Below, in pieces: positions 15,667-30,261 of a DNA stretch of 64,000 nt (positions within the stretch are counted from its first letter, which is position 1; every line of letters starts with the position of its first letter). The DNA comes from an uncultured Spirochaetota bacterium (GTDB taxonomy: Bacteria > Spirochaetota > Spirochaetia > SZUA-6 > Fen-1364). The translations under genes and the position numbers were made by a program. The stretch spans positions 256,001 to 320,000 of the forward strand of contig CAVUXE010000053.1 of NCBI GenBank assembly GCA_963745235.1. Reading direction: 5' to 3'. Under the pieces are notes generated by a model that did not search any database, had not been told where the DNA came from, and worked only from the letters and a program-made list of their open reading frames with translations.

Positions 15667-15691
15667 AAGCCCGAAGATGTATTTTCGAATC

Positions 15692-16551
15692 ATGCGCAAA
15701 ATGGATATCAACGGAAGTGAGGGGGCCGGCGTTGCGGCGGTCATCTTCGACTGGGCGGGAACCATCGTGGATTACGGGTGCTTTGCCCCGGCGGTCTCTC
15801 TGGTGGAAACCTTCGCGGACCGGGGCGTGCACATCACCCTGGCCCAGGCGCGCGGGCCGATGGGACTGGAGAAGAAGGAGCACATCCGCCGTCTTCTTGC
15901 GGATCAGGAAATCAGCGGCCTTTGGAGGGCTGCCGCCGGCGCGGATCCCCGGCCCCAGGACGCGGACTCGTTGTATGAGGAGCTTGAGCCGCGGCTGGTG
16001 ACCGCGGTGAAGAGGCATGCCCAGCTTGTCCCCGGCACCAGGGAGCTGGCGGAGGAGCTTCGCTGCTGGGGCATCGGGATCGGGTCCACCACGGGATACC
16101 TGCGGCCACTCATGGACATCCTCACGGCGGAAGCCGCGCGGCAGGGGTTCATCGCGGACGCCGTGATCTGCCCCTCTGATGTTCCCGGCCGGCGGCCCTT
16201 CCCGTGGATGTGCTTCCTGAACGCCATGAGGCTCAAGGCATATCCTCCGCGGAGGATCGTGAAGATCGGCGACACGCCCGCGGACATCATGGAAGGCCTC
16301 AACGCCGGCATGTGGACAATCGGCGTCACGTTGTCCGGCAACGAAGTGGGACTTCGCCGGCCGACGTGGAGGGAATGAGCGCGGAGGAGCGCTGCACGCG
16401 CGTCCAGGAGGCGGAGAAGCGCCTGCGGGCTTCCGGCGCTCACTACACGGCGGAGAGCGTGGCGGAATGCCGGGACATCCTGGCGAGGATCGAGGAGCGA
16501 ACCATCCGCGGCGAGCACCCATCACGGGAGAAGTCGCATGAGCGCGCCTGA
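15692..16551 (+). CDS. phnX: phosphonoacetaldehyde hydrolase; frameshift near 16355
   Basis: [26 protein letters not shown] (Schiff-base Lys), [24 protein letters not shown]; C-terminus GAHYTAESV in another frame. Confidence 0.92.
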
Positions 16552-17668
16552 GCGGCCCCCCAACCCTTACGTGCTCCTCACTCCGGGGCCCCTCAGCACC
16601 ACTGCCAGCGTGAAGGAAGTCATGCTGCGGGACTGGTGCACATGGGACGCGGACTACAACGGGATTGTGCAGGATATCCGACGACGTCTCGTCGAGCTGG
16701 CGACCCGCAGGTTCCGCCAGGACTACACGAGCGTTCTGATGCAGGGCTCAGGCACTTTCAGCGTTGAAGCCACCCTGGGGACAGTGATCCCGCCTGCCGG
16801 CAAGGTCCTGGTCCTGGCCAACGGCGCATACGGGGAGCGGATGGGGCACATCGCCGGGAGGCTCGCCATTGAGAATGCCGTCCTTCGAAGCGATGAGACG
16901 ACGTGGCCAGACCCGTCCCTGCTGAGAGAGGCTCTGAGCGCGGACCCCGCCATCACGCACGTCGCCCTGGTGCACTGCGAGACGACCACGGGCATCCTCA
17001 ATCCCCTGGAAGAGATTGCGGCCGTCGTGCGCGAAAGCGGCCGCTCCTTCATTGTGGACGCGATGAGCAGCTTCGGCGGGATTCCGATGGACGTCGGCGA
17101 GCTGGGAGTGGATTTCCTGGTGAGCAGCTCGAACAAGTGCATCCAGGGGGTGCCGGGATTCGCTTTCGTCATTGCCAGGAGGAAGGCGTTGGGTGCGTGC
17201 GAGGGCCAGGCGCGCTCGCTCTCCCTGGACCTCTACGACCAGTGGCGGACAATGGAGAATGAGAACGGAAAGTGGAGGTTCACGTCTCCCACCCATGTGG
17301 TCAGGGCCTTCGCCCAGGCTCTCCGGGAGCTGGACGAAGAAGGGGGAGTGGAAGCCCGGTCCGCGCGGTATCGAGCGAATCATTTCATGCTGGTGCGCGG
17401 GATGGGTCAGCTCGGGTTCACGTGTCTTCTCCCGGCAGAGCTTCAGTCTCCAATCATAACCTCGTTTCTGGAGCCTGCCGCTGCGAGGTATGCCTTTCCA
17501 CGGTTCTACGCCGACCTGAAGGCGGGCGGCTTCGTGATCTATCCCGGCAAGGTATCCCGGGCAAACACCTTCCGGATCGGGACAATCGGCGACGTCAACC
17601 CCGCCACGATCAGCTCCCTCATCGAGACCATGAAAGGCTGCATCTCCTGGGCGACTGCCGGCAAATAA
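16538..17668 (+). CDS. phnW: 2-aminoethylphosphonate-pyruvate transaminase
   Basis: [55 protein letters not shown]. Confidence 0.95.
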
Positions 17669-17704
17669 ACCGATTCTTAACGCCGGCCTAATCGAAAACT
17701 AATG
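17666..17704 (+). promoter_or_regulatory. second Pho-box-like array upstream of phnG
   Basis: TAAACC/TTAACG/CTAATC/CTAATG at 17666, 17677, 17688, 17699 (11-bp period). Confidence 0.65.
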
Positions 17705-17728
17705 GAATCATGGGTCTCTTGTCTGGCC

Positions 17729-18139
17729 ATGATGGACTATTCGGAGATCGCGGCCGAGGCAAGCGCTGAAGCGGTGCGCCGGATTGCGGAGGCGGTCGTC
17801 AACCAGCTTCCCGTCAGAATCCTGAAATCCCCCTCTCCGGGAATGGTGATGGTGCGGCAGGTCGACCCGCTGGAAAACATCATCTTCCATCTCGGGGAGG
17901 CTTACGTCACCGAGTGCGAGGTGGAGGTCGACGGTCTCCCCGGATATGGCTGCGTGCTGGGCTCGGGTGAGGATCGGGCGCTGTGCAGCGCCCTGCTGGA
18001 TGCGGTGATCGGCGGCGGGCATGCGGCGACCGCGGAGATCGCGCCGCTCCTGGAAGCCGAGGAGAAACGGATCAGGGAGCGATGGGACACGGAAAGCAAG
18101 GCCGCGGCGACCACGCGCGTGAGCTTCGAAGTTCGGTAG
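17729..18139 (+). CDS. phnG: C-P lyase subunit PhnG
   Basis: P..GMVMVR, FHLGEAYVTECEV, AATTRVSFEV; position before phnH. Confidence 0.88.
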   Translation: MMDYSEIAAEASAEAVRRIAEAVVNQLPVRILKSPSPGMVMVRQVDPLENIIFHLGEAYVTECEVEVDGLPGYGCVLGSGEDRALCSALLDAVIGGGHAATAEIAPLLEAEEKRIRERWDTESKAAATTRVSFEVR

Positions 18140-18150
18140 GAGAGCTGGGA

Positions 18151-18762
18151 ATGGTGCGGGAAACAGTGTTCGACGAGGTCTTCGACAGCCAGGCTGTGTT
18201 CCGCGCCCTTCTCGATTCGTTGAGCAGGCCGGGGACCATTTCGATGATTGCGCCGCGGCCGTACGGATCGCTGCCGGGCGGGCTTTTGCCGCCGGCTCTT
18301 TCGATCCTGAAGACCCTGTGCGATCACCACGTTTCATTCTCCCTGGGCTCCGCCGGAGCGAAACCCGAATGGGTGAGCTACCTCGAGATGAACCTGTCCA
18401 CTCCTTTCCGACGGGTGGACGAGGCTGACTACGTCCTTTTCGACGGGGAGGAGTTCGACGCGGACTTCCTCCGCCTGAATCCGGGCTCGCTCGAGTTCCC
18501 CGAGCGTTCCGGCGACCGCTCTTCTCTGCGTCCGGCTGCTTTCCGACCAGGGAGAGCCCGTGCGCGGACGCCGCGAGCTGATCCTCGGGGGCCGGGCGTC
18601 AAGGGACGCGCGCGTCTTTCCGTGGACGGCCTCGATGCGCGCTACATCGAAGAGCGCGCGAACGCAAACAGGTTCTACCCGATGGGGATCGACCTCCTGC
18701 TTGTCGACGCCGAGGGAAGGGTCGCGGGAGTTCCCCGCACGAGCGCGGTGGAGGCCGGCTGA
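18151..18762 (+). CDS. phnH: C-P lyase subunit PhnH (compensating frameshift pair near 18510 and 18593)
   Basis: DSQAVFRALLDSLSRPG, GSLEFPERS, GPGVKG, YPMGIDLLL, GVPRT. Confidence 0.88.
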   Translation: MVRETVFDEVFDSQAVFRALLDSLSRPGTISMIAPRPYGSLPGGLLPPALSILKTLCDHHVSFSLGSAGAKPEWVSYLEMNLSTPFRRVDEADYVLFDGEEFDADFLRLNPGSLEFPERSGDRSSLRPAAFRPGRARARTPRADPRGPGVKGRARLSVDGLDARYIEERANANRFYPMGIDLLLVDAEGRVAGVPRTSAVEAG

Positions 18763-19853
18763 TGGGGTACGTCGCGGTCCAGGGCGGCGTCACCGCCATT
18801 GAAAGCTCGCAGAAGCTCAACCGGTACCTCAGGCTCCGGGGGGAAAGCGCCCCGCTCTCGGTCAACCAGATCATGGACCAGATGGGCCCGCTCGTGGACA
18901 GGGTCATGGGCGAGGGCGGGCTGTACTCACCCTTCCACGCGGCCCTTGCCATCAAACAGGCATCCGGCGACCCCATCGAGGCGGCGTTCCTGCTGCGCGC
19001 CTACCGGGCGACGCTGCGGCGCCTCGTGGATTCGCTGCCGGTGCGCACCGAGGAGATGAGGATACTGCGCCGCATTTCCAGCGCCTTCAAGACCATCCCC
19101 GGAGGCCAGGTCCTCGGTTCCACCTCCGACTACGAGCAGCGGATCCTCGACTTCTCACTCGCCGAGGAGACCGTGGAGACGCAGCGCGAGGCAGTGCGCG
19201 AGTTCGAGGCGGGTCTCGGGGACCATGGGGAGCCGCTTTCCCCCGGGCACTTCCGCAAGGTGGTGGACATGCTCCGCGACCAGGGCCTGGTGCCGCCCGT
19301 GCCGCCGCGCTCCGACGCCCCGCCGACGGACGTCACGCAGGAGTCCGCGACGTTCCCGCTTGACCGCAGCGGCCGTCTGCAGATGCTCGCCCGGGCGGAA
19401 ACGGGCGGGGTGCTCGCCCTGGCGTACAGCAGCATGCGCGGCTATGGCAGCATTCATCCCACCGTGGGAGAGCTGCGCGTCGGCCGGGTCCGCGTGCAGA
19501 TCCCGCACCCCTGGCGGAAGGGGAGGGCGGTCACCCTCGGCTCCGCGGCCATCACCGAGGTGGAGATCGTCGCTTCGTTCCATCGCTCCGAGGGGGAAGC
19601 GAAGCCGACTTTCAGCCTGGGGTACGGCTCATGCTTCGGCCATAACGAAGTGAAGGCCATCTCGCTCGGGGTCCTGGACCGGGCCATGAGGTCTCCGACT
19701 CCCGGGGCGCCCGCGGAGGACCACGAGTTCGTCCTGCTGCACACTGACGGCGTGGAGTCTTCGGGGTTCTGCTCCCATTTCAAGCTTCCCCACTATGTCA
19801 CCTTCCAGGCGGACCTCGACAGGCTGCGCACCCAGAGGGGAGTCGAAGAATGA
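18762..19853 (+). CDS. phnI: C-P lyase subunit PhnI
   Basis: MGYVAVQGG, EAAFLLRAYR, RRISSAFKTIPGGQ, HPTVGELR, HFKLPHYVTFQ. Confidence 0.95.
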   Translation: MGYVAVQGGVTAIESSQKLNRYLRLRGESAPLSVNQIMDQMGPLVDRVMGEGGLYSPFHAALAIKQASGDPIEAAFLLRAYRATLRRLVDSLPVRTEEMRILRRISSAFKTIPGGQVLGSTSDYEQRILDFSLAEETVETQREAVREFEAGLGDHGEPLSPGHFRKVVDMLRDQGLVPPVPPRSDAPPTDVTQESATFPLDRSGRLQMLARAETGGVLALAYSSMRGYGSIHPTVGELRVGRVRVQIPHPWRKGRAVTLGSAAITEVEIVASFHRSEGEAKPTFSLGYGSCFGHNEVKAISLGVLDRAMRSPTPGAPAEDHEFVLLHTDGVESSGFCSHFKLPHYVTFQADLDRLRTQRGVEE

Positions 19854-20746
19854 CGCTGCAGGAGCTTCTGCCGCGGGGAAAGGGCTTTCGCTACAACTTC
19901 GCCTTTGTCGACGAGGGGGTGAAGAAGGAAGTCCGACGCGCCCTCCTGAAAGCCGTGGCCCTTCCGGGCCACCAGGTGCCTTTTGCATCCCCCGAGCTCC
20001 CGATCGCCCGGGGGTGGGGGACAGGGGGCCTCCAGGTGACGATGTCCATCATCGGCCCGAACGATGTGCTGAAGATCATAGATCAGGGCTGCGATGGAAG
20101 CGTGAACGCCGTCAACCTGCGGAAGCTCCTGGTGGCGACAACCGGCGTGCGCACCACTTTCGATTCGCGGGAAGCAACGGTGCTGCAGTCCCGGCACCGC
20201 CTTCCCGAGATCCCCCTTCGCGCCGACCAGATCGCTGTCCTGCAGGTCCCGCTCCCCGAGCCCCTTCGGCTCGTTGAGCCGAGCGAGGTGGAGACGCGGC
20301 GGATGCACTCCGAGGGGGACTATGCGCGCATGTGGGTGTCCCTGTACGAGGACATCGTTCGAAACGGGTCCATCTCCCTCACGTCCGGCTATCCCTGCCG
20401 CGTGAACGAAACCTACATCATGTCTCCCTCACCCCTCCCTCGATGGGACCTGCCGCTGCTCCACGATGCCGAGCACCTGACCCTCCTTGGCGCCGGCCGC
20501 GAGAAGCGGGTCTACGCGGTGCCGCCGCATACCTCCGTGCGGCCGCTGGAGTTCGACGACATGCCGTTCGCCGTGGAGGATTTCTCCGGCATGATCTGCG
20601 CGCGCTGCGGGTCAAGCGGCACGTTCCTGGACGAGATCTATGATGAAAAGAGCGGCGAGCCGTCACGCGTGTGCTCGGATTCCGGGTTCTGCGACCTGGT
20701 GCTCCAGGGGGCCATCCCCCGACGAGGGAGACGCGCCCATGGCTGA
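19850..20746 (+). CDS. phnJ: C-P lyase radical-SAM subunit PhnJ
   Basis: GWGTGG glycyl motif, IDQG, GAGREKR, CX2CX21CX5C cluster motif. Confidence 0.96.
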   Translation: MTLQELLPRGKGFRYNFAFVDEGVKKEVRRALLKAVALPGHQVPFASPELPIARGWGTGGLQVTMSIIGPNDVLKIIDQGCDGSVNAVNLRKLLVATTGVRTTFDSREATVLQSRHRLPEIPLRADQIAVLQVPLPEPLRLVEPSEVETRRMHSEGDYARMWVSLYEDIVRNGSISLTSGYPCRVNETYIMSPSPLPRWDLPLLHDAEHLTLLGAGREKRVYAVPPHTSVRPLEFDDMPFAVEDFSGMICARCGSSGTFLDEIYDEKSGEPSRVCSDSGFCDLVLQGAIPRRGRRAHG

Positions 20747-21575
20747 CCAGGTTCTCCTGCGGGTGCAGGACCTCGGAAAGCGCTTCGGTCCTGGATGCGA
20801 GGGCTGTCGGGAGCTCACGGGTCCCGAGCATTCGACGAACATGTGCCCGCGGTGCGGGTCCGTGACCGCGATGGCCGGCATCACCTTCGAGCTGAAGCAG
20901 GGAGAGATCCTGGGGGTGGTAGGAGAAAGCGGGTCCGGAAAGAGCACCCTGGTCCAATGCGTCTACTTCGACCAGGACGCAACGGGGGGGCGGATCAGCA
21001 TCAACGGGCAGAACGGGGGAAGCAACGTCCTGGAGCTGCCCCGCAGCGAGAAGCGCAGGCTGCGCGGCCGCCTCATGGGAATGGTGTACCAGAACCCGCT
21101 GCGAGGGCTCCGTATGGATATCACCAGCGGGGCCAACGTCGCGGAGAAGCTCCTGGAGGCAGACGTCTTTCATTTTGCGCGTATCCGCGAGCGGGCGACA
21201 CGGCTCCTTGCCAGCACGGAGATACCCCTTGCGTACATGGATCGCTTCCCGCGATCCCTTTCCGGCGGGATGCAGCAGCGCATCCAGATCGCAAAGGCCC
21301 TGGCGAACAACCCTCCCCTCGTTCTCCTTGACGAGGTCACCTCCGGCCTCGACGTGAGCGTGCAGGCGCGGGTGCTGGACCTCATTCGCGAGCTGCAGCG
21401 GGAGCTCGGGATCTCGATGATCGTGGTATCGCACGACATGGGGGTCATCCGGCTCCTCGCGGACCGTACGCTGGTCATGAAAGACGGCTTCGTGGTGGAG
21501 CAGGGGCTCACTGACCAGATCCTCGAAGACCCGCAGCATGCCTACACGCAGCTGCTCGTGCATTCGACGCTGTAG
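20739..21575 (+). CDS. phnK: C-P lyase ABC-ATPase-like subunit PhnK
   Basis: GESGSGKS, SGGMQQRIQIA, GLDVSVQARVLD, DPQHAYTQLLV. Confidence 0.94.
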   Translation: MADQVLLRVQDLGKRFGPGCEGCRELTGPEHSTNMCPRCGSVTAMAGITFELKQGEILGVVGESGSGKSTLVQCVYFDQDATGGRISINGQNGGSNVLELPRSEKRRLRGRLMGMVYQNPLRGLRMDITSGANVAEKLLEADVFHFARIRERATRLLASTEIPLAYMDRFPRSLSGGMQQRIQIAKALANNPPLVLLDEVTSGLDVSVQARVLDLIRELQRELGISMIVVSHDMGVIRLLADRTLVMKDGFVVEQGLTDQILEDPQHAYTQLLVHSTL

Positions 21576-21592
21576 GAGGGAGACCAGGCCAG

Positions 21593-22291
21593 ATGATGCG
21601 ATGCGAGGGGCTTTCCAAGACGTTCCTCATGCACGTGCGCGGCGGCAAGCGGATCCCGGCGTTCGCCGATGTGAGCTTCAGCCTGTCGGAAGGGGAGTTC
21701 CTCGGCATCAGCGGTCCCAGCGGCGCCGGCAAGTCCTCTCTCCTCAAGTGCCTCTACCGCACGTACCTCCCCTCCGCCGGCTCGGTCTGGTACAAGGACG
21801 CCGCGGCGCAGACACGGGACCTTGCCGCGGCGGACGAGCACGACATCCTGCGGCTGCGCCGCCTCGAGATCGGGTACATCTCCCAGTTCTTTCCCGTCAT
21901 CCCACGGGTATCCGCGCTCGACACCATTGCGAACAGCATGGTGGCGCGGGGCTTCCCGCGGGAAGAAAGTCTCGGGAAGGCCCGCGAGCTGCTGGAAAGG
22001 CTCGCCATTCCGCGCCCGCTCTGGGAGCTGTCTCCGTCCACGTTCTCGGGAGGCGAGAAGCAGCGGATCAATATCATCCACGCCATCATTGCCCGTCCCC
22101 GCCTGCTCCTGCTGGATGAGCCCACGGCGTCCCTTGACGCGGCCACGGCGCGGGAGGCGGTGTCTCTGATACGGGAGCTGAAAGGGGAGGGGACTGCGAT
22201 GATCGGGATATTCCACGACATGGCTCTTCTGACGGGTCTTTCGGACCAGATGATCGAAATGGGTGCAACGCGCGTCGGGGGTGCCGCGTGA
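21593..22291 (+). CDS. phnL: C-P lyase subunit PhnL
   Basis: GPSGAGKS, YISQFFPVIPRV, PSTFSGGEKQRINI, GIFHD. Confidence 0.94.
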   Translation: MMRCEGLSKTFLMHVRGGKRIPAFADVSFSLSEGEFLGISGPSGAGKSSLLKCLYRTYLPSAGSVWYKDAAAQTRDLAAADEHDILRLRRLEIGYISQFFPVIPRVSALDTIANSMVARGFPREESLGKARELLERLAIPRPLWELSPSTFSGGEKQRINIIHAIIARPRLLLLDEPTASLDAATAREAVSLIRELKGEGTAMIGIFHDMALLTGLSDQMIEMGATRVGGAA

Positions 22292-23532
22292 AGGATACGG
22301 TCTTCACCGACGTCCGCATCGTCACACCGAGTGAGGTCATCCAACGGGGCACGCTGACCGTCAGGGACGGCTTGATCGCCTCCGTGGAGAGCGGCCAGCC
22401 GCGCTCCCTGGTCCCCGCCGGGGCGGCCGTGATCCCGGGTCAGGGCCGGCTCTTGATGCCGGGTTTCGTGGACCTGCACAACGACGGGATCGAGGGGGAG
22501 ATCGAGCCGCGGCCGCGCGCCGTGTTCCCCCTGGCCGTCGCTCTTCAGTCGCTGGAGAGCAAGCTCGTCAGCCACGGCATCACGACGATATTCCATTCCT
22601 TCTCCTTCCTGGACGGCCGGGAAGGGACGCTGCATCCGGACGTGCTGGAGCCCGCGGTGCGGGAGATTCACAAGCTTCGACGCACGGGGGTCATCCGGCA
22701 CCTCGTGCACGCCCGCTACGAAATGGCGGAGACGCACCACTACGAGAGGTTTCGTCGACTGATCGACGAGAGGCTCGTGAACCTCGTCTCCTTCATGGAC
22801 CACACGCCGGGGCAGGGGCAGTACCGCAACCCTGAGCACCTCGTGAACTACTATGTGCGCAAGTACAACTCCCCGCTCGGGGAGATCCAGGCCCTTCTCA
22901 AAGAACGGGAGGCAAAGGCCCGCAACCCCGAGGTGGGCATGATTCTCGGCAAGCTCGCGGCCCATGTCCGGGAGGCTGGCCTGCCCCTTGCGTCTCATGA
23001 CGACGACTCCGCGGAAAAAGTGGCGCGGATGCACGGCCTCGGCATCACGATCAGCGAGTTTCCCGTCGACATGGCCGCGGCGCGCGCCGCTTCCCAGCGG
23101 GGCATGCATGTCGCCGTGGGTGCCCCGAATGTCCTGCGCGGGAAATCCACCTCGAACAACCTGAGCGCCCGTGAAGCGATCCTGGACAACACGGTGGACA
23201 TCCTTTGCTCGGACTACTATACGCCGGCGCTCCTGCACGCGGTGTTTCGCCTGGTCAGGGAAGGGATTCTCCCGCTGCCGAAGGCCGTTCGCATGGTCAG
23301 CGCGAACCCGGCCCAGGCCGCCGGTATGCAGGCGGAGCTGGGCTCCGTGGAGGTCGGCAAACGGGCGGACCTCATCATGGTCAACGACTCGGGGGATCTG
23401 CCCGCGGTTGTGGGCGTGTGGGTGGGCGGACGTTGCGTTCTGGAGAAGCATGACAGCACGTCCAACCCTCTGGGTGATCTCTGGGCGCGGGAGGTCTCTG
23501 TTCTCCCGCGGGAGTCCACCCATGCTTCATGA
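22288..23532 (+). CDS. phnM: alpha-D-ribose 1-methylphosphonate 5-triphosphate diphosphatase
   Basis: [43 protein letters not shown]. Confidence 0.95.
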
Positions 23533-24166
23533 AATGGACCTGCGTCCTGAAGAGCCGCCCTGCATCCTCTCCGAAGCCCCGCTGATTCACGAAGGAGCGC
23601 GGATAGAGAAGAGCCGCATTGGCTCGTGGACGGAGATAGGTCGAGGCAGTCACATCGTCGAGTCCACGATCGGCGACTATACCTATGACGACGGGGATGT
23701 CTCGATCTTCTACTCCGAGATCGGAAAGTTCTGCTCCCTGGCCAACAGGGTGCGAATCAACCCCGGCAATCACCCGCAGGACAGAGTGACCCAGCACCAC
23801 CTGACGTATCGGAGAAAACAGTTCGGCCTCGACACGCGTGATGATGAGGTGTTTTTCGACTGGCGCCGGTCGCATCCCTGCGTGATCGGACATGATGTGT
23901 GGATCGGCCACGCGGCAGTGGTGCTCCCTGGCGTGCGGATCGGCACGGGGGCCGTGATAGGCGCCGCGGCGGTTGTCACCAGGGACGTAGAGCCATACCA
24001 GGTAGTGGTGGGGGTGCCCGCGCGACCCGTGCGCAGGCGCTTCCCCGAGGATGTCATCCATCGCATCCTGAAGAGCGAGTGGTGGAACTGGGACCGGCAG
24101 GAGCTGGAAGAGCGCTGGCGCGACCTGTTCTCGGTTGAAGGCTTCCTGGCGCGGTACGCACCGTGA
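23522..24166 (+). CDS. hexapeptide-repeat acetyltransferase of the phosphonate-cluster type
   Basis: [36 protein letters not shown]. Confidence 0.88.
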
Positions 24167-24999
24167 CGACGTCCCCCATGGTGGATGAAGCCGCTGTCCG
24201 CAGCGTCGCAATCCAGGCAGCCACGGGCGCCGGCGCGTTGATGCGCGGCAGCTTCAAGTCCGCGCTCCAGGTGGACGCGACGGAGGCACACGACCTGAAG
24301 CTGCGGCTTGATCGCACCTGCGAGGAGAGCATCGTCGGTGTGATCCGCGAACGCTTTGCCGAGCACGGCATTCTGTCGGAGGAGATGGGGTACGCCCCGG
24401 GCACGGACCCCTATGTCTGGATCGTAGATCCCCTGGACGGCACCGTGAACTTCTTTCATGGCATCCCGTTCTTCTGCACGTGCGTGTCCTGCCACGGGGT
24501 CCGGCAGAACGATGAGTCCCCGGGCGAAGCGCATCTTCCTGACGGCCGCGCCGTCGGCGGGGCCGTGGCGGCCGTCATCTACGCCCCCGTTGCCAGGGAG
24601 CTCTTCGTGGCCACGCCCCGGGCGGGCTCTTTCCTGAACGGAGCTCGACTGGTCCTGAAGCCCCTGGCAGACCTTTCCGATGCAATTGTCTCCCTGTCAT
24701 TCGGCGCGCGGGACGGCAGCCCGTCCTACATGAGCCGGCTGCTCCCCGCCATGATCGAACGCGCGCAGAAGGTGCGAAGCCTCGGCAGCACTGCCCTGGA
24801 CATCGTGAATGTGGCGGCCGGTCGGACCGGCGCATTTGTCCAGATGGGCACGAACCTCTGGGACTTCTCCGCGGCCGCGGCCATCTTGAGGGAGGCGGGA
24901 GGCATTGTCGATACCACGGAATATGCTCCGGGCCGCTGGAAGGTAATCGCGAGCAACCCGGGCCTGTTCTCCGAAGTGCGGAAGCTTGCCGGGCAATGA
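24163..24999 (+). CDS. inositol-monophosphatase-family phosphatase
   Basis: [27 protein letters not shown] motifs; GTGA overlap with upstream gene. Confidence 0.9.
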
Positions 25000-25565
25000 G
25001 CGCCTCGATCAGGTTCATCATCATCACTGTCCTTCCGGACGACGTTGCGCGCAGGTTCGACTCTGCGCGGCGCCTCGTTTGCGAGGTCGGGCGCTCCCGG
25101 GCCAGCCTCGCGTACCCGCCGCATGTCACGCTTCGGACCGGGGCTCTCGTTCCGGTGGAGCACGTTTCAGCGTTCCTTGAAGGGTTCAGTGAGGCCCTCG
25201 GCGCGTGGGACCCCTTTTCCGTCACGACAGACGGGTTTCTCCTCTCTGGGTACCAAGACGGGGAGGTGCGGAAATATCTGGCCGGCTACCGGGTTCGAAA
25301 AGACCCCCCGATCATGAGCCTCAACACGCGGCTCCTTCGCTTCGAGAAGTGGCGGGCGAGCAATCGCCTTGTTTTCGAGCCTCACCTCACCCTCGCCTTC
25401 GATGACCTGACCGAGGAAGGCATGCAGAGAGTCCGGCTCTGGCTCGACGAAAACCCGAACGGGCTTCCAACGGGTTTCCAATGGTCGTGCGACAACGTGT
25501 GCCTCTACCGGCCTCAGGGCGACTCCTGGAGCCTGCACGCGGAGTGGAAGGCGCGGCGCCCCTGA
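24996..25565 (+). CDS. 2H phosphoesterase (LigT / 2'-5' RNA ligase-like)
   Basis: two HxT motifs: YPPHVTL and FEPHLTLAF; ATGA overlap with IMPase. Confidence 0.85.
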   Translation: MSASIRFIIITVLPDDVARRFDSARRLVCEVGRSRASLAYPPHVTLRTGALVPVEHVSAFLEGFSEALGAWDPFSVTTDGFLLSGYQDGEVRKYLAGYRVRKDPPIMSLNTRLLRFEKWRASNRLVFEPHLTLAFDDLTEEGMQRVRLWLDENPNGLPTGFQWSCDNVCLYRPQGDSWSLHAEWKARRP

Positions 25566-25644
25566 TCGCGCTTTGCACGATGTCCCCGGGCAGGGAGATT
25601 TCCCAGAGGGTGCACGGCGCGAAGCGTGGTGCGGCACGGATGCT

Positions 25645-26120
25645 TCAGTCCACGATCAGGCCAATGGCAAAGCCGTCGTAGCCCTTCACCCCAACCGTCT
25701 GAATGGCGGTTGCCATCACGTGAGGATTGGCGGCCATGCGGGAGTTGCATTCCCTTGTTCCGCGGACGCCTTCATCCGCGCCATCATCCGTGTGGAGAAC
25801 GTCGCCAGCCCTCACCACGTTGTCCACCACGGTCAGGCTGCCGGGGTGCGTCAGGAGTACCGCCCAGTCGAAGTATGCCGCGTTGTTCTGCTTATCGGCA
25901 TCGAGAAACACGAAGTCGAGCATGCGAGGCATCTGCTCCGCAAGCAGCCGTAGCGACTCCAGCGCCGGACCGACGCGCACCTCGATGATGTCCTGCAGCC
26001 CGGCTCCCTCGATGTTGCGCCGCGCAGCTGCGGCGTGTTTCTCGCTGGCTTCCAGCGAGATGAGCACGGAACAAACATTTCATTGATATATCTGTCCACT
26101 CGCGTCCATGTGTCCTGCAT
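25645..26120 (-). pseudogene. O-methyltransferase (COMT/YrrM-like) with internal deletion
   Basis: AGGAGG RBS plus MQDTWTRVDRYINEMFV jumps out of frame to LISLEASEKHA..FLDADK..VVDNVV..GVKGYDG; the segment carrying the LEIGT SAM motif is absent. Confidence 0.75.
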
Positions 26121-26202
26121 CCTGCCTCCTGCTTCCGCAGCTGCCAAGCTACCGCCCCCCCGGGCCGAAAGTCCAGCCGGGCTGGACGGGATGGTCCTCA
26201 GA

Positions 26203-26241
26203 TTCACGATAGTTTAACAAACGCTTAATCCACGCAAAACA
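26203..26241 (+). promoter_or_regulatory. third Pho-box-like array upstream of phnD
   Basis: TTCACG/TTAACA/TTAATC/AAAACA at 26203, 26214, 26225, 26236 (11-bp period). Confidence 0.75.
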
Positions 26242-26329
26242 AATCCTGCGCAGAATTGCGACCGGGTGAGACAAGGGAAATTGCGGAAGCGCGCGGGAGC
26301 GCCTTCCGCCGAGAGAAAGGAGCATTTGC

Positions 26330-27349
26330 ATGAAGAGAGTCCATTTGCTTTTTGCGGGCGTGGTTCTGGCATCCCTGACCCTCCTGGCGGGATGCGGACC
26401 GGCGGGCAAGCCCATCACGATCGCCTGGCTGCCCAATAACTCCGGCGACAACCAGAAGGTGTTCCGCGCGGAGTTCGACAAGGTGGTCGCGGACGCCACC
26501 GGGAGGAAGGTCGAAGACAAGCTGACGACGGACTACAACATCGCCATGGCAGCCCTGGATTCGGGGGACGCCCAGCTGGGCTGGTTCGGGCCTTTCGAGT
26601 ACATGGCCGGCCACGCAAAGAATCCTCACGTCGTGGCGCTTGTCGTGGAAAGCGGAGATTCGGGCGGGCTTCAGGATTCCCTCTACTACAGCCGGCTGCT
26701 CGTGAAGAAAGGCAATGAAGGCCAGTACAAGTCCGGCGACGGTTTCTCGATCGACAAGATAGTCGGCAAGAAGGTCTCCTTTGTTTCCACCAGCTCGACG
26801 TCCGGGTTCAACATGCCGGCCGCAGCAATCATGGCCTCCTTCCATGGCATGGACAAGTGGAAGAGCCTGTCAAAGGATGACCTCATGCAGGGCGGCCCGG
26901 GGAAGTTCTTCTCCCAGGTCATGTTCTCAGGTTCCCATCAGCTCTCCCTGGCGAACCTCCTCATGGGCAAGGTTGACATCTCCGCGGTGGACGATATCGA
27001 CGTCAAGGTCTACCTGGATCTGACCTCGGGGACCGAGAACCAGGAAGGCGCCGTTTATGCCGTCAAGAAGGGCGCGGAGGCTCCGTTCGACACGCTTGGC
27101 GGTGCACAGTTCGTCATCATCAAGTCGATCCCGGTCCAGAACACTCCGTTCGAAACCAACGACACAACGCTGGACAAGGCGACCCTGGACAAGATCACGC
27201 AGGCGCTTCTTTCGGACAAAGTCACCAATGACCAGATGGTGTTCCAGCCCAAGGGCGGTTCGGGCGCCGGGTTGTTCAGCCAGCCTCATCGTTTCGTGAA
27301 AGTGGATGACTCCTGGTACGACCCGATGCGGAAGGTCCTCGGCCTTTAG
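26330..27349 (+). CDS. phnD: phosphonate ABC substrate-binding lipoprotein
   Basis: lipobox LAGC, TTDYNIA, SFVSTSSTSGF, FSGSHQ, DSWYDPMR; AAGGAG RBS. Confidence 0.88.
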   Translation: MKRVHLLFAGVVLASLTLLAGCGPAGKPITIAWLPNNSGDNQKVFRAEFDKVVADATGRKVEDKLTTDYNIAMAALDSGDAQLGWFGPFEYMAGHAKNPHVVALVVESGDSGGLQDSLYYSRLLVKKGNEGQYKSGDGFSIDKIVGKKVSFVSTSSTSGFNMPAAAIMASFHGMDKWKSLSKDDLMQGGPGKFFSQVMFSGSHQLSLANLLMGKVDISAVDDIDVKVYLDLTSGTENQEGAVYAVKKGAEAPFDTLGGAQFVIIKSIPVQNTPFETNDTTLDKATLDKITQALLSDKVTNDQMVFQPKGGSGAGLFSQPHRFVKVDDSWYDPMRKVLGL

Positions 27350-27368
27350 CAATCGATGCTCTGTTTCC

Positions 27369-27410
27369 GGCGTGGGGCATCGGCCTTTCGATGTCCCGCG
27401 CCAGCTTTTT
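27369..27410 (+). terminator. hairpin with U-tract between phnD and phnC (attenuator or mRNA stabiliser)
   Basis: ggcgtggggcatcg..cgatgtcccgcgcc followed by a T-run. Confidence 0.55.
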
Positions 27411-27427
27411 CGCGAGGGAGGCTCCGG

Positions 27428-28198
27428 ATGGCCCTTTTGGAATTGAGGAACGTCACCAAGTGCTACAAAGGAGCAAAGCGCGCGCTCGCCGACGTGAGCT
27501 TCTCAGTGGAAGAAGGGGAGTTCGTCTCCATCATCGGTTCCTCGGGATCCGGAAAGACCACCCTCCTGCGCTGTATCAACCGCATGATCGAGCCGACCGG
27601 CGGAGAGATATCCTTCGCCGGGGTCAGCGTCTCCCGGCTGCGCAGGCGCGAGCTGCGCCGCCTCAGGACACGGATCGGCATGATCTTCCAGCAGCACAAT
27701 CTCGTGGAGCGGTTGAGCGTGATCGAAAACGTCCTCCACGGAAGGCTGGGGTACAAATCCACGATCTCCGGAATGCTGGGACGGTACACCTATGAAGAAA
27801 AGCAAAGAGCGTTCGAGATCATCGGAATCCTGGGGCTGGACGAGCAGGTTTACCAGCGATGCGATCAGCTGAGCGGCGGCCAGAAGCAGCGCGTGGGGAT
27901 TGCCCGGGCGCTGGTCCAGAGTCCGAAAATGATCCTCTGTGATGAGCCGATTGCTTCACTGGATCCCGGCACCTCCAAGGTCATCATGGACTACCTCAGC
28001 GACATTTGCAGGGATTTCGGCATCACTCTGGTCATCAGCCTGCACCAGGTGGATGTTGCCCTGAGGTACTCCCACAGGGTAATCGGCTTCAACAGAGGTT
28101 CCATTCTCTACGACGGATCACCGCAAGGGCTCACCCCGGAAAGGATTGCGGAGATCTACGGGTCCGAGCCGGCGGAGCTCGCGATCCAGGCGGGGTAG
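27428..28198 (+). CDS. phnC: phosphonate ABC ATP-binding protein
   Basis: GSSGSGKT, ENVLHGRLG, LSGGQKQRVGIAR, DEPIASLDP, SLHQV. Confidence 0.93.
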   Translation: MALLELRNVTKCYKGAKRALADVSFSVEEGEFVSIIGSSGSGKTTLLRCINRMIEPTGGEISFAGVSVSRLRRRELRRLRTRIGMIFQQHNLVERLSVIENVLHGRLGYKSTISGMLGRYTYEEKQRAFEIIGILGLDEQVYQRCDQLSGGQKQRVGIARALVQSPKMILCDEPIASLDPGTSKVIMDYLSDICRDFGITLVISLHQVDVALRYSHRVIGFNRGSILYDGSPQGLTPERIAEIYGSEPAELAIQAG

Positions 28199-28209
28199 AC
28201 CTCATCCCC

Positions 28210-28995
28210 ATGCAGGTCGACGTTTTCATCAGGCGCAGGAACAACGGCCTGCTCATGCTCGGCCTGTTTGCAGCCGTGACCATCGGCGCGGTCGTGCTCA
28301 CGCGCTACGACCTGGTCAAAGGGTTCACGAGCTTTGTCAGGGCGTTCGCCTGGGGAGTCTCCAGCTTCTACCCGGATGCTCAATCGATGAAAAAGCTCCC
28401 GGACATCCTCGAAAAACTATGGGACACGGTCTTGATCTCCATCGCCTCCACAATGGTGGCCGCTGTCTTTTCGCTCTTTCTGGCGCTCTCGGGTTCGAGG
28501 ACCACCCGTGCGAATCCGTTTTTCACCGTGCTGGCGAGGGGGATAGGGTCGTTCTTTCGGAACATGCCCCTGGTCGCGTGGGCCATGGTGCTGATACTGG
28601 CATTCAGCCAGAGTGAATTGACCGGCTTTCTCGCGCTGTTCTTCGGTTCCCTGGGCTTCCTTACCCGCACGTTCATGGAAACGATCGATGAAGTCGGGGA
28701 GGGTGTGGTGGATGCCTTGAGGGCCACCGGCGCGGCGCGCCCCCACATCACGACCCAGGCCGTCCTGCCCTCCAGCATGCCGCAGATGGTCAGCTGGCTG
28801 CTGTTCATGATCGAGACGAACATTCGTGACGCAACGCTCGTCGGCCTGCTCACCGGCACGGGAATCGGGTTCCTGTTCGACGTCTACTACAAATCCTTCA
28901 ACTACCACGCGGCAAGCCTCATCGTGATTGTCACCGTGATCGCCGTCATAGCCATGGAAACTATCTCGAACAGCGTACGAAGGGTAATCCTCTAG
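28210..28995 (+). CDS. phnE: phosphonate ABC permease
   Basis: FRNMP, ALRATGA, ETNIRDATLVGLLTGTGIG. Confidence 0.9.
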   Translation: MQVDVFIRRRNNGLLMLGLFAAVTIGAVVLTRYDLVKGFTSFVRAFAWGVSSFYPDAQSMKKLPDILEKLWDTVLISIASTMVAAVFSLFLALSGSRTTRANPFFTVLARGIGSFFRNMPLVAWAMVLILAFSQSELTGFLALFFGSLGFLTRTFMETIDEVGEGVVDALRATGAARPHITTQAVLPSSMPQMVSWLLFMIETNIRDATLVGLLTGTGIGFLFDVYYKSFNYHAASLIVIVTVIAVIAMETISNSVRRVIL

Positions 28996-29842
28996 TGGAT
29001 TTCGAAGGACCGCTGCAATCGCGACAAAAACCCCTGACCCTGCCGGGAAGCGCCCCAAAACCCGATATTCGCGCAAAAAGGGTCACGTGGATCACGCTGG
29101 CCGTGCTGGTTGCCATCACGATCTATTGTCTGGTAACCATGAGCAGCGGAGGCGTCAACGTTCTGCACGCCACTGGTGACACCCTGAGAAACTTCAAGAT
29201 AATCTTCTTCCAGCCGCATCCGCACCGGCTTGCCGTCGGGGACGCGCTCATCGAGATCGTGATGACACTCGGCCTGGCCGTGCTGGCCACGATCCTCGGC
29301 GGCTGCGTCGCCTTTGTGCTCGGACTCCTCGGCGCGCAGAACCTCGCGCCGAAATGGATCACAAACGTCGTGAAAGGCATTGTCGCGTTCGTTCGGGCCG
29401 TTCCCACGATTCTGTGGGTCCTCATCTTCGCCGTTGCCGCCGGACTCGGCAGCACCGCCGCGGTCATTGGCCTGTCCTTCCACACGGTGGGGTATCTGAC
29501 GAAGGCATACTCCGAGTCATTCGAAGACCTGGATCGAGGCGTCATCGACGCGCTGAAGGCTACGGGGGCCGACTGGTTGCAGATCGTCTTTCAGGCGGTG
29601 ATACCGTCCTCCGCCACGTATCTCCTGTCCTGGACTTTTCTGAGGTTCGAGATAAACTTCGCCAACGCCGTGGCAATGGGGGCCGCGGCCGGGCGGCCGG
29701 AATTGGCTTCGATCTGTTCATGGCAAGCGGATTCTATTTCGATCTTCACGAAGTCGGGCTCATCACGTATGGTATTCTCGCTACGGCCGTCATTCTGGAA
29801 GTCGCGGCCACGAGGATCAAGACAAGGCTCAAGGACAAGTAA
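28995..29842 (+). CDS. phnE: second phosphonate ABC permease; frameshift near 29691
   Basis: RAVPTILW, ALKATGA, LRFEINF..MGAAAG continuing as AAGIGFDLF..RLKDK* in another frame. Confidence 0.88.
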
Positions 29843-29871
29843 GACGTGCGAAGGACCAGGAGGACAGCTCC

Positions 29872-30261
29872 ATGGGAAAAAAGATCGTCGCGAAAGCGGC
29901 CGTCATCGGTGGCCACGCGCTCGTCGGATGGGCCCTCTGCGCTGCAACCATGGGCATCGGCATGCAGCTCTTCCCGCTGTTGACGGCTCTGATCACCCAC
30001 GCCATCGGCGCTCCCATCTTTTTCGCGCTCGTTTCCTGGAACTATTTCCGGAGGTTCCGCTTTACTACTCCGGCGCAGACCGCGGCCATCTTTGTCCTTG
30101 TCGTGGTCTTCCTCGACTTCTTCCTTGTCGCCCTTGTGATCCTGAAAAGTCTGGCGATGTTCGCAAGCCTCCTCGGCACCTGGATTCCCTTCGCGCTGAT
30201 TTTCGCCTCGACGTACATCACGGGCCGATGGTGGGAGACCCAGGCTGAAACCCAGGGATAG
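29872..30261 (+). CDS. hypothetical membrane protein (about 4 TM)
   Basis: AGGAGG RBS; hydrophobic helices; 129 aa. Confidence 0.75.
   Translation: MGKKIVAKAAVIGGHALVGWALCAATMGIGMQLFPLLTALITHAIGAPIFFALVSWNYFRRFRFTTPAQTAAIFVLVVVFLDFFLVALVILKSLAMFASLLGTWIPFALIFASTYITGRWWETQAETQG

Follow-up and report, generated by a model that had tools for sequence, protein, structure and literature searches.

In the pathway of carbon-phosphorus (C-P) lyase, the radical S-adenosylmethionine (SAM) subunit PhnJ cleaves the C-P bond, and its product is 5-phosphoribosyl 1,2-cyclic phosphate (PRcP), as given in PMC3840354. The last steps of the pathway settle the fate of phosphonate phosphorus, which is either captured as phosphoribosyl pyrophosphate (PRPP) or released as free inorganic phosphate (Pi). 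Here, we examine a 64,000-nucleotide (nt) stretch of DNA, referred to below as the window, from an uncultured Spirochaetota bacterium (assembly GCA_963745235.1, contig CAVUXE010000053.1, positions 256,001 to 320,000), in which the phn operon ends with a gene for an inositol monophosphatase (IMPase)-family protein followed by a gene for a 2H phosphoesterase. On the strength of sequence and genome comparisons, we judge it reasonably likely that these last two operon genes provide an end to the C-P lyase pathway that consists of two enzymes and is independent of adenosine triphosphate (ATP).

In Escherichia coli, the pathway is completed by PhnP and PhnN, which share with the window pair both their place in the pathway, following on the cyclic product of PhnJ, and their position as phn operon-end genes. 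The first step, the opening of the ring to a ribose bisphosphate, is probably common to the two systems, whereas the second is an ATP-dependent formation of PRPP in E. coli and would be a hydrolysis to Pi in the window. The folds also differ, being those of a metallo-beta-lactamase and a guanylate-kinase-like protein in PhnP and PhnN versus 2H and IMPase in the window. A second solution is PhnPP, a PHP-family enzyme (Elen0235 of Eggerthella lenta; NF041661), which is described as converting PRcP to ribose 5-phosphate and Pi without PhnN (PMC11656708, PMC8774927). This net reaction is the same as that which we propose for the window pair, but PhnPP is one enzyme that performs both hydrolyses, whereas the window encodes two unrelated enzymes in a genome that has no phn-type PHP gene. 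A third precedent is DUF1045, also called "rcsF", a member of the 2H superfamily that has been proposed as a stand-in for PhnP in phn operons (PMC3840354, PMC10574752) and that adjoins phnN in 86% of cases (PMC3266647). DUF1045 (PF06299) resembles the window 2H protein in its superfamily, in its occurrence in phn operons without phnP (proteobacterial in this case), and in its proposed role; however, it is a distinct family and is partnered by the kinase gene phnN, whereas the window 2H protein is partnered by a phosphatase.

Two further systems are relevant by virtue of their chemistry and fold. The cyclic phosphodiesterase (CPDase) of plants and yeast (1fsi, 1jh6) acts on adenosine diphosphate (ADP)-ribose 1'',2''-cyclic phosphate (Appr>p), a substrate that shares its ribose 1,2-cyclic phosphate with PRcP, and the product of this reaction is the 1''-phosphate. 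Unlike the bacterial, phn-linked 2H protein, CPDase is a eukaryotic enzyme for a by-product of tRNA splicing. The SuhB/IMPase/archaeal-type FBPase-IMPase family, in turn, has its fold and metal-binding motifs in common with the window IMPase; as judged by its family names, it includes sugar- and nucleotide-bisphosphate phosphatases, and the window protein is an extra paralogue.

The preliminary description of this DNA had proposed that the 2H protein opens PRcP and that the IMPase releases Pi directly, giving ribose 5-phosphate without a PhnN step. The genomic checks reported below all favour this reading, while two of its elements are known already, namely the net outcome (from PhnPP) and the replacement of PhnP by a 2H protein (from DUF1045). 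What appears to be new is the presence, in this role, of a second 2H family that is not related to DUF1045, the pairing with a phosphatase rather than a kinase, and the link between IMPases and the PRcP step. A literature search of incomplete coverage found no publication that connects C-P lyase with an IMPase or with the 2H family described here.

The IMPase-2H gene pair at the end of the phn operon

The window contains a single run of co-oriented genes on the + strand, from phnX through the second phnE (15677-30248). Family assignments were made with Pfam and NCBIfam models, and the part of the run that leads from the lyase genes to the pair reads as follows, with the limits of open reading frames (ORFs) given where the start is in doubt:

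17702..18139, + strand, phnG (PF06754, 81 bits; TIGR03293, 92 bits)
17983..18762, + strand, phnH, ORF limits (PF05845, 113.7 bits; TIGR03292, 108 bits)
18762..19853, + strand, phnI (PF05861, 441.5 bits)
19850..20746, + strand, phnJ, C-P bond-cleaving radical SAM subunit (PF06007, 421.8 bits)
20640..21575, + strand, phnK, ORF limits (best match TIGR02323, 230 bits, below the cut-off of 302.85; also ABC_tran)
21593..22291, + strand, phnL (TIGR02324, 266 bits, above the cut-off)
22288..23532, + strand, phnM (TIGR02318, 391 bits; NF011990, 414 bits)
23522..24166, + strand, phn-specific hexapeptide-repeat transferase (TIGR03308, 257 bits; cut-off 201.65)
24163..24999, + strand, IMPase-family phosphatase, P0001, 278 amino acids (PF00459, 156 bits; cut-off 27)
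24996..25565, + strand, 2H phosphoesterase, P0002, 189 amino acids (PF13563, 44.5 bits; also PF02834)

The set phnGHIJKLM had been described as complete and as translationally coupled, through the transferase, to the two genes of interest. Both statements hold, as all seven lyase genes are intact and are matched by Pfam or NCBIfam models (PhnK as a best match that stays under its cut-off), and stop/start overlaps of 4 nt join the transferase to the IMPase gene (GTGA) and the IMPase gene to the 2H gene (ATGA). An alternative ATG start for the IMPase lies at 24178. Overlaps of 4 nt are also read from the sequence between phnI and phnJ and between phnL and phnM, while that of phnM and the transferase is 11 nt if the latter starts at the ATG at 23522, which agrees with the TIGR03308 model (the listed ORF begins at 23171). 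The true start of phnH is probably near 18140-18172, with the PhnH domain beginning at residue 64 of the ORF, and that of phnK probably follows the phnJ stop at 20746.

P0002 is a member of the 2H phosphoesterase superfamily, as seen from its two H-x-T motifs and its fold. The motifs PPHVTL and EPHLTL that had been noted earlier are found in the protein, and in an alignment of 32 relatives, H43, T45, and H130 are invariant and T132 is nearly so. The family model PF13563, for which the cut-off is 27 bits, is matched by all 32 members. The AlphaFold model of the window protein (predicted local distance difference test score, pLDDT, of 96.1) retrieves CPDase, YjcG, LigT, and Usb1 with a Foldseek probability of 1.0. 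The top matches in the Protein Data Bank (PDB) are to the Arabidopsis Appr>p cyclic phosphodiesterase (1jh6/1fsi; template modelling (TM) score of 0.70-0.73), followed by YjcG and LigT, with CPDase leading the other 2H structures by a small margin. In sequence, the match to CPDase is weak (E = 0.0021), with an identity of just 14-15%, and the CPDase model PF07823 is weakly matched by 11 of the 32 members (best E = 1.1e-4) but not by the window protein itself. A search of a large protein collection gave 103 relatives at E <= 0.001, and when 1.84 billion cluster representatives were searched exhaustively with a profile, 77 were retrieved at E <= 1e-30; the family is therefore small. The sole database name that these relatives carry is "2'-5' RNA ligase family". 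We propose the window protein as a candidate 5-phosphoribosyl 1,2-cyclic phosphate phosphodiesterase. An assignment to DUF1045/rcsF was also tried and was rejected, with PF06299 being matched by none of the 32 members at E <= 1 and an hhalign profile comparison with Sinorhizobium DUF1045 returning a probability of 0.4%.

P0001 is a member of the inositol monophosphatase family by its model match, its metal-binding motifs, and its fold. The motifs DPLDGT and WD are present as previously noted, and E73/E74, D89-P-L-D92-G-T94, and W233-D234 are invariant across 34 relatives. The AlphaFold model (pLDDT 94.2) has TM scores of 0.8-0.9 to SuhB/IMPase structures. The protein nonetheless remains under every NCBIfam equivalog cut-off, scoring 126 versus 332 bits for the SuhB-type model NF008027, 114 versus 275 for HisN, 54 versus 229 for CysQ, and 103 versus 264 for FBPase/IMPase. 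We propose it as a candidate ribose-bisphosphate phosphatase. The genome has three IMPase paralogues, including a canonical housekeeping copy on contig C29 (200 bits) that is 32% identical to that of the window and a closer one on contig C11:

G000:C11:42855-44248 (L117 7856-9249), IMPase paralogue with 67% identity and a histidine-phosphatase gene, overlapping by 4 nt

The histidine-phosphatase-superfamily partner is 175 amino acids long, and around the two genes lie a sugar ABC transporter, a fucose-isomerase-like gene, and a TIM-barrel gene. The C11 pair looks like a second phosphatase pair. The trees that we inferred for the 2H and IMPase families are quick trees.

In the pathway end that we propose, PhnJ leaves PRcP as its cyclic product, and the 2H protein would open this diester by hydrolysis. 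The ribose bisphosphate so formed is probably ribose 1,5-bisphosphate, on the precedent of 2H enzymes acting on the ring of ribose 1,2-cyclic phosphates, or else it may be ribose 2,5-bisphosphate. The IMPase-family enzyme would then remove that phosphate to yield ribose 5-phosphate and Pi, such that the end of the pathway would need neither PhnN nor ATP. For both enzymes, the substrates, the regiochemistry, and the products are those that we infer.

Search for the usual pathway-end enzymes

The genome to which the window belongs (G000) is an assembly of 5.85 megabases (Mb) in 104 contigs, with a completeness of 85.74% and a contamination of 5.87%. Across the whole assembly, PhnN (TIGR02322, cut-off 156 bits) has no match at E <= 0.001, and the best match to PhnP (TIGR03307, cut-off 272.25) is a 23.7-bit metallo-beta-lactamase on another contig (C52:11189-11596). 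DUF1045 (PF06299) likewise has no match in the whole assembly; as a positive control, the same search recovered two copies on a Sinorhizobium plasmid. For phn-type PhnPP (NF041661, curated cut-off 500), the best score in the assembly is 90 bits, from an unlinked generic PHP gene (G000:C52:61155-61946). On this model, 160-248 bits are reached by PHP genes that lie within the phn loci of other genomes, and 64-112 bits by generic PHP genes. The lack of PhnP, PhnPP, and PhnN that had first been noted in the window alone thus extends to the assembly, where the search for these three and for DUF1045 gave neither a phn-type match nor a canonical copy.

In the 12 closest genomes, which have the same operon (G401-G412), no PhnN match exceeds 21 bits and no PhnP match exceeds about 30 bits. 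Because these nearest relatives are also without PhnN and PhnP, the incompleteness of G000 is offset. In a broader set of 30 genomes (that of the window, 10 further Spirochaetota with PhnJ, and the 19 genomes from which loci L002-L020 come), neither PhnN nor PhnP is found above its cut-off in any genome.

Linkage of the 2H gene to phn genes and to the IMPase gene

We collected 86 loci with a 2H gene (20 from species genomes, 63 from metagenome contigs, and 3 from other Spirochaetota) and annotated them with the proteins of the window as tblastn queries; the labels PhnK and PhnE1 mark position only, as those two queries are out of frame. Core phn genes stand beside the 2H gene in 18 of the 20 genome loci. 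When the comparison is limited to the 35 loci with at least 6 kilobases (kb) of flank, core lyase genes are found in 25, and the number rises to 31 when phnCDE genes are counted as well. The four exceptions are G417 (locus L018), which has phnJ on another contig, and three archaeal outliers with 23% identity. A PhnP or PhnN homologue occurs in none of the 86 loci.

For the 68 loci with at least 300 nt of upstream sequence, the gene directly upstream of 2H is:

IMPase, 52 of 68 loci
AP_endonuc_2 TIM barrel, 3 of 68 loci
PhnPP-like PHP, 2 of 68 loci
phnM, 2 of 68 loci
a gene matched by no query, 9 of 68 loci

The nine loci in the last row comprise those with a GntR/UTRA regulator (L099, L104), those in which 2H and phnG are divergently oriented (L015, L094), the locus with an upstream FMN reductase (L107), L091, and the three archaeal outliers. 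Clustering at 95% identity of the 2H protein reduces the 86 loci to 71 clusters, 56 of which have upstream sequence, and in this non-redundant set the upstream gene is an IMPase in 43, a TIM barrel in 3, and a PhnPP-like PHP in 2. The IMPase-2H pair moves as a unit: in most loci it follows the transferase, but in L085 and L087-L089 it precedes phnG, and in L098, L100, L102, L103, and L105 it comes after phnDCEE and a GntR/UTRA regulator. The association with phnJ that the preliminary description had raised is therefore borne out, with both genes being tied to phn genes over many loci (2H in 31 of 35, and IMPase-2H in 52 of 68).

Distribution of 2H and PhnP across genomes

In a sample of 401 Spirochaetota genomes, 12 match PhnJ, including the window's own and one with a 49-residue fragment. 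None of the 10 others has PhnP or PhnN above the cut-off, and their operon ends are:

TIM barrel and 2H, 5 genomes
TIM barrel alone, 2 genomes
PHP and IMPase, 2 genomes
PHP alone, 1 genome

A second sample of 401 genomes was taken from the Planctomycetota, the phylum of the 2H carrier G416, which is among the 11 genomes with PhnJ above the cut-off. Among the 10 besides G416, 2H is absent throughout; a PhnP-type gene lies no more than 4 kb from phnJ in seven, PhnN is linked in one, and the operon ends in an IMPase in two. The seven phn-linked PhnP-like genes score 120-320 bits, with one above the 272-bit cut-off. Conversely, in the 25 genomes with 2H, we observe no PhnP-like gene near phn genes and no PhnN. 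In the genomes examined, which are small samples of related genomes, 2H and phn-linked PhnP thus appear to exclude each other: the two are never found in one genome, and PhnP is present in 7 of the 10 Planctomycetota that lack 2H. The Planctomycetota genome with the linked PhnN (G654, locus L121; 170 bits) has no PhnP-like gene above 45 bits and no 2H.

Other candidate occupants of the pathway end

The slot adjoining 2H is filled in some loci by other genes. In L016 and L019, it is a PhnPP-like PHP gene (161-201 bits on NF041661), while in L035, L037, L039, L122, and L123, it is an AP_endonuc_2 TIM barrel, which also occurs at operon ends without 2H:

L035 13555-14508, L037 14360-15295, L039 6318-7253, L122, and L123, AP_endonuc_2 TIM barrel between phnM and 2H
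L034 13612-14526 and L124, AP_endonuc_2 TIM barrel after phnM, no 2H

The TIM-barrel protein (304-317 amino acids) occurs at this place in another spirochaete family and shows weak similarity to CbiR, a cobamide-remodelling phosphodiesterase, as well as to endonuclease IV. Possibly, it is one more enzyme for the end of the C-P lyase pathway. In L014, as also in L090, 2H directly follows phnM, and a 438-amino-acid IMPase-domain protein with a 150-amino-acid N-terminal extension is encoded 7.6 kb upstream:

L014 1103-2419 and 10001-10525, 438-amino-acid IMPase-domain protein and 2H, respectively

Evidence on IMPases that is independent of 2H comes from loci that were reached through phnJ or the PHP gene. 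In G067, the gene order is phnM, transferase, PHP, and IMPase, with the last two ORFs overlapping, and the same order (transferase, PHP, IMPase) is observed in G140, divided over two contig ends. In L015, the two are fused into a single 544-amino-acid protein encoded inside the phn operon, the PHP half of which has the top NF041661 score (248 bits):

L015 1671-3305, - strand, PHP-IMPase fusion (family proteins P0363-P0468, about 540 amino acids)

Both Pfam domains are present in 95 of the 120 best homologues of the L015 fusion. These fusion homologues occur in Spirochaetota and in cultured Bacillota, with the genomic context examined for one, and Maledivibacter halophilus, Brassicibacter mesophilus, and a Dendrosporobacter strain are among the cultured carriers; among 41 relatives of G414, the fusion is found in G414 itself only. 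Finally, the phn operons of two Planctomycetota (G727 and G853) end as phnGHIJKLM-IMPase, and whole-genome searches found no 2H in either. The IMPases that occur apart from 2H are 26-45% identical to that of the window, no closer than the genome's housekeeping copy (32%), and the recruitment of IMPases to phn therefore looks repeated.

The forms in which IMPases are found, as neighbour of 2H, as neighbour of PHP, as a PHP-IMPase fusion, and alone, suggest recruitment in each of these settings. A more general reading is that the pathway end has two slots that are filled in a mix-and-match manner, one by a ring-opener (PhnP, DUF1045, 2H, or PHP) and the other by an enzyme for bisphosphate disposal (PhnN or IMPase), with the IMPase having been recruited several times independently as a general accessory of phosphonate catabolism; for this broader scheme, we see the chances as evenly balanced. 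The phn operon on plasmid pVV8 of Thermus thermophilus HB8 (L045, 11579-15386) has no annotated phnP or phnN, and 3' of phnM it encodes a DapH-like transferase, a TIGR00282-family metallophosphoesterase, and a sugar phosphate isomerase/epimerase-family protein. The pathway may end in yet another way in L045.

Alternative explanations

Several observations weigh against the pair as a dedicated pathway end. All members of the 2H family come from uncultured genomes, and the loci were mostly gathered by a 2H search, such that the neighbour counts are no unbiased survey of phn operons. The 67%-identical IMPase paralogue on C11 has a sugar-uptake context, beside a histidine-phosphatase gene and outside phn, which means that the IMPase clade is not exclusive to phn. 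The identity matrices of IMPase and 2H correlate with r = 0.93, which lends no special support because shared ancestry alone predicts such a correlation. The 2H gene lacks an adjoining phosphatase gene in L014/L090 (after phnM) and in L099 and L104 (after the regulator), and it coexists with a PhnPP-like PHP in three loci; since the characterised relative of these PHP enzymes performs both steps alone, 2H is not always the sole ring-opener. At a completeness of 85.7%, the assembly may lack a phnP or phnN gene that is unlinked to the operon, and the generic PHP on C52 (90 bits) and weak metallo-beta-lactamases are present and could act on PRcP. In addition, 9 of the 30 genomes carry unlinked, full-length PhnP-like proteins of 75-104 bits, including the 2H carriers G139, G206, G281, and G416-G419, with no phn gene within 1.5 kb of any of them. 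As phn-linked PhnP-like genes score down to 120 bits, counts made at the cut-off are too strict.

The main rival to the two-enzyme pathway end is that the pair scavenges RNA-derived nucleotides under phosphate starvation, being co-regulated with phn but standing outside the lyase pathway. The 2H protein would open 2',3'-cyclic nucleotides to 2'-nucleotides, from which the IMPase would then free Pi. IMPases hydrolyse adenosine 2'-monophosphate, and 2',3'-cyclic phosphates are the substrates of most 2H relatives that have been characterised (LigT, YjcG), whose fold scores come near that of the Appr>p enzyme. Such a role also agrees with the one clade (L098-L105) in which the pair comes after phnDCEE and a regulator and the available flank contains no lyase genes, and with the close IMPase paralogue on C11 that works outside phn. 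However, a scavenging module would be expected outside phn and beside phnP, whereas 31 of the 35 well-flanked loci are phn loci, and 2H occurs in none of the 10 PhnJ-positive Planctomycetota genomes examined besides G416, seven of which have a linked PhnP. The neighbour of 2H is, moreover, replaceable by the PRcP-specific PhnPP type, and the genome behind L018, one of the loci without adjacent phn genes, does have phnJ on another contig. We regard nucleotide scavenging as unlikely.

We likewise find it improbable that 2H alone acts in the pathway, as an analogue of PhnP that would deliver ribose 1,5-bisphosphate to an unrecognised kinase or isomerase, with the IMPase acting elsewhere, for example, by dephosphorylating ribosyl-phosphonate intermediates or by-products. 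An independent role for 2H agrees with the loci where it has no adjoining IMPase (L014/L090, L099, L104, and the TIM-barrel loci), and G654, which has PhnN and no recognisable ring-opener, illustrates that partners can be unlinked. Yet IMPases recur at this position with 2H, adjoining PHP, and fused to PHP, as well as alone at the operon end, and PhnN is present in 0 of the 25 genomes with 2H. That the canonical enzymes were simply missed, either in the unassembled 14% or as an unlinked PHP or metallo-beta-lactamase, with the pair being redundant or unrelated, seems very doubtful, for although the completeness of 85.74%, the generic PHP (C52:61155-61946), and the weak metallo-beta-lactamase (C52:11189-11596) leave room for it, G401-G412 are also without both enzymes and the same loss in all 13 assemblies is unlikely.

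The last steps are also those by which annotation schemes judge whether the pathway is complete, and a scheme keyed on phnP/phnN or on phnPP would treat the peat and soil Spirochaetota and Planctomycetota described here as having no pathway end. Two candidate enzymes, together with a PHP-IMPase fusion that occurs in cultured bacteria, are now named. A modular pathway end for C-P lyase with several solutions would matter for how phosphonate and methane cycling are read from metagenomes, and if the broader scheme is true, IMPase-family proteins would be an overlooked general accessory of phosphonate catabolism.

Flanking genes and minor observations

The remainder of the co-oriented run, together with a gene remnant on the opposite strand, consists of:

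15677..16378, + strand, phnX, phosphonoacetaldehyde hydrolase (TIGR01422, 279.9 bits; cut-off 220)
16538..17668, + strand, phnW, 2-aminoethylphosphonate-pyruvate transaminase (NF010006, 556.9 bits)
25645-26067, - strand, O-methyltransferase remnant (PF01596, profile positions 72-192 of 204)
26330..27349, + strand, phnD, phosphonate-binding protein (PF12974, 103 bits)
27356..28198, + strand, phnC (TIGR02315, 333.8 bits)
28006..28995, + strand, phnE, first permease, ORF limits with the start uncertain (TIGR01097, 212 bits)
28995..30248, + strand, phnE, second permease (TIGR01097, 158.7 bits)

The genes phnX and phnW, which belong to the phosphonatase route for 2-aminoethylphosphonate, lie directly 5' of phnG, such that one run holds two phosphonate pathways. 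This upstream placement of phnX-phnW is kept in several relatives (L003, L004, L008, and L009). On the other side of the pair, the gap between 2H and phnD is 765 nt in the window and about 170 nt in the nearest relative, L002; most of the gap in the window is occupied by the remnant, an N-terminally truncated class-3 O-methyltransferase. Promoter and terminator scans at the operon start and 3' of 2H gave no signal above the shuffled expectation. DNA nearly identical to positions 20000-27400 of the window is observed in public peat and soil metagenome runs, with six rows containing at least half of the sampled words, and the metagenome contig L049 is 99% identical over the operon.

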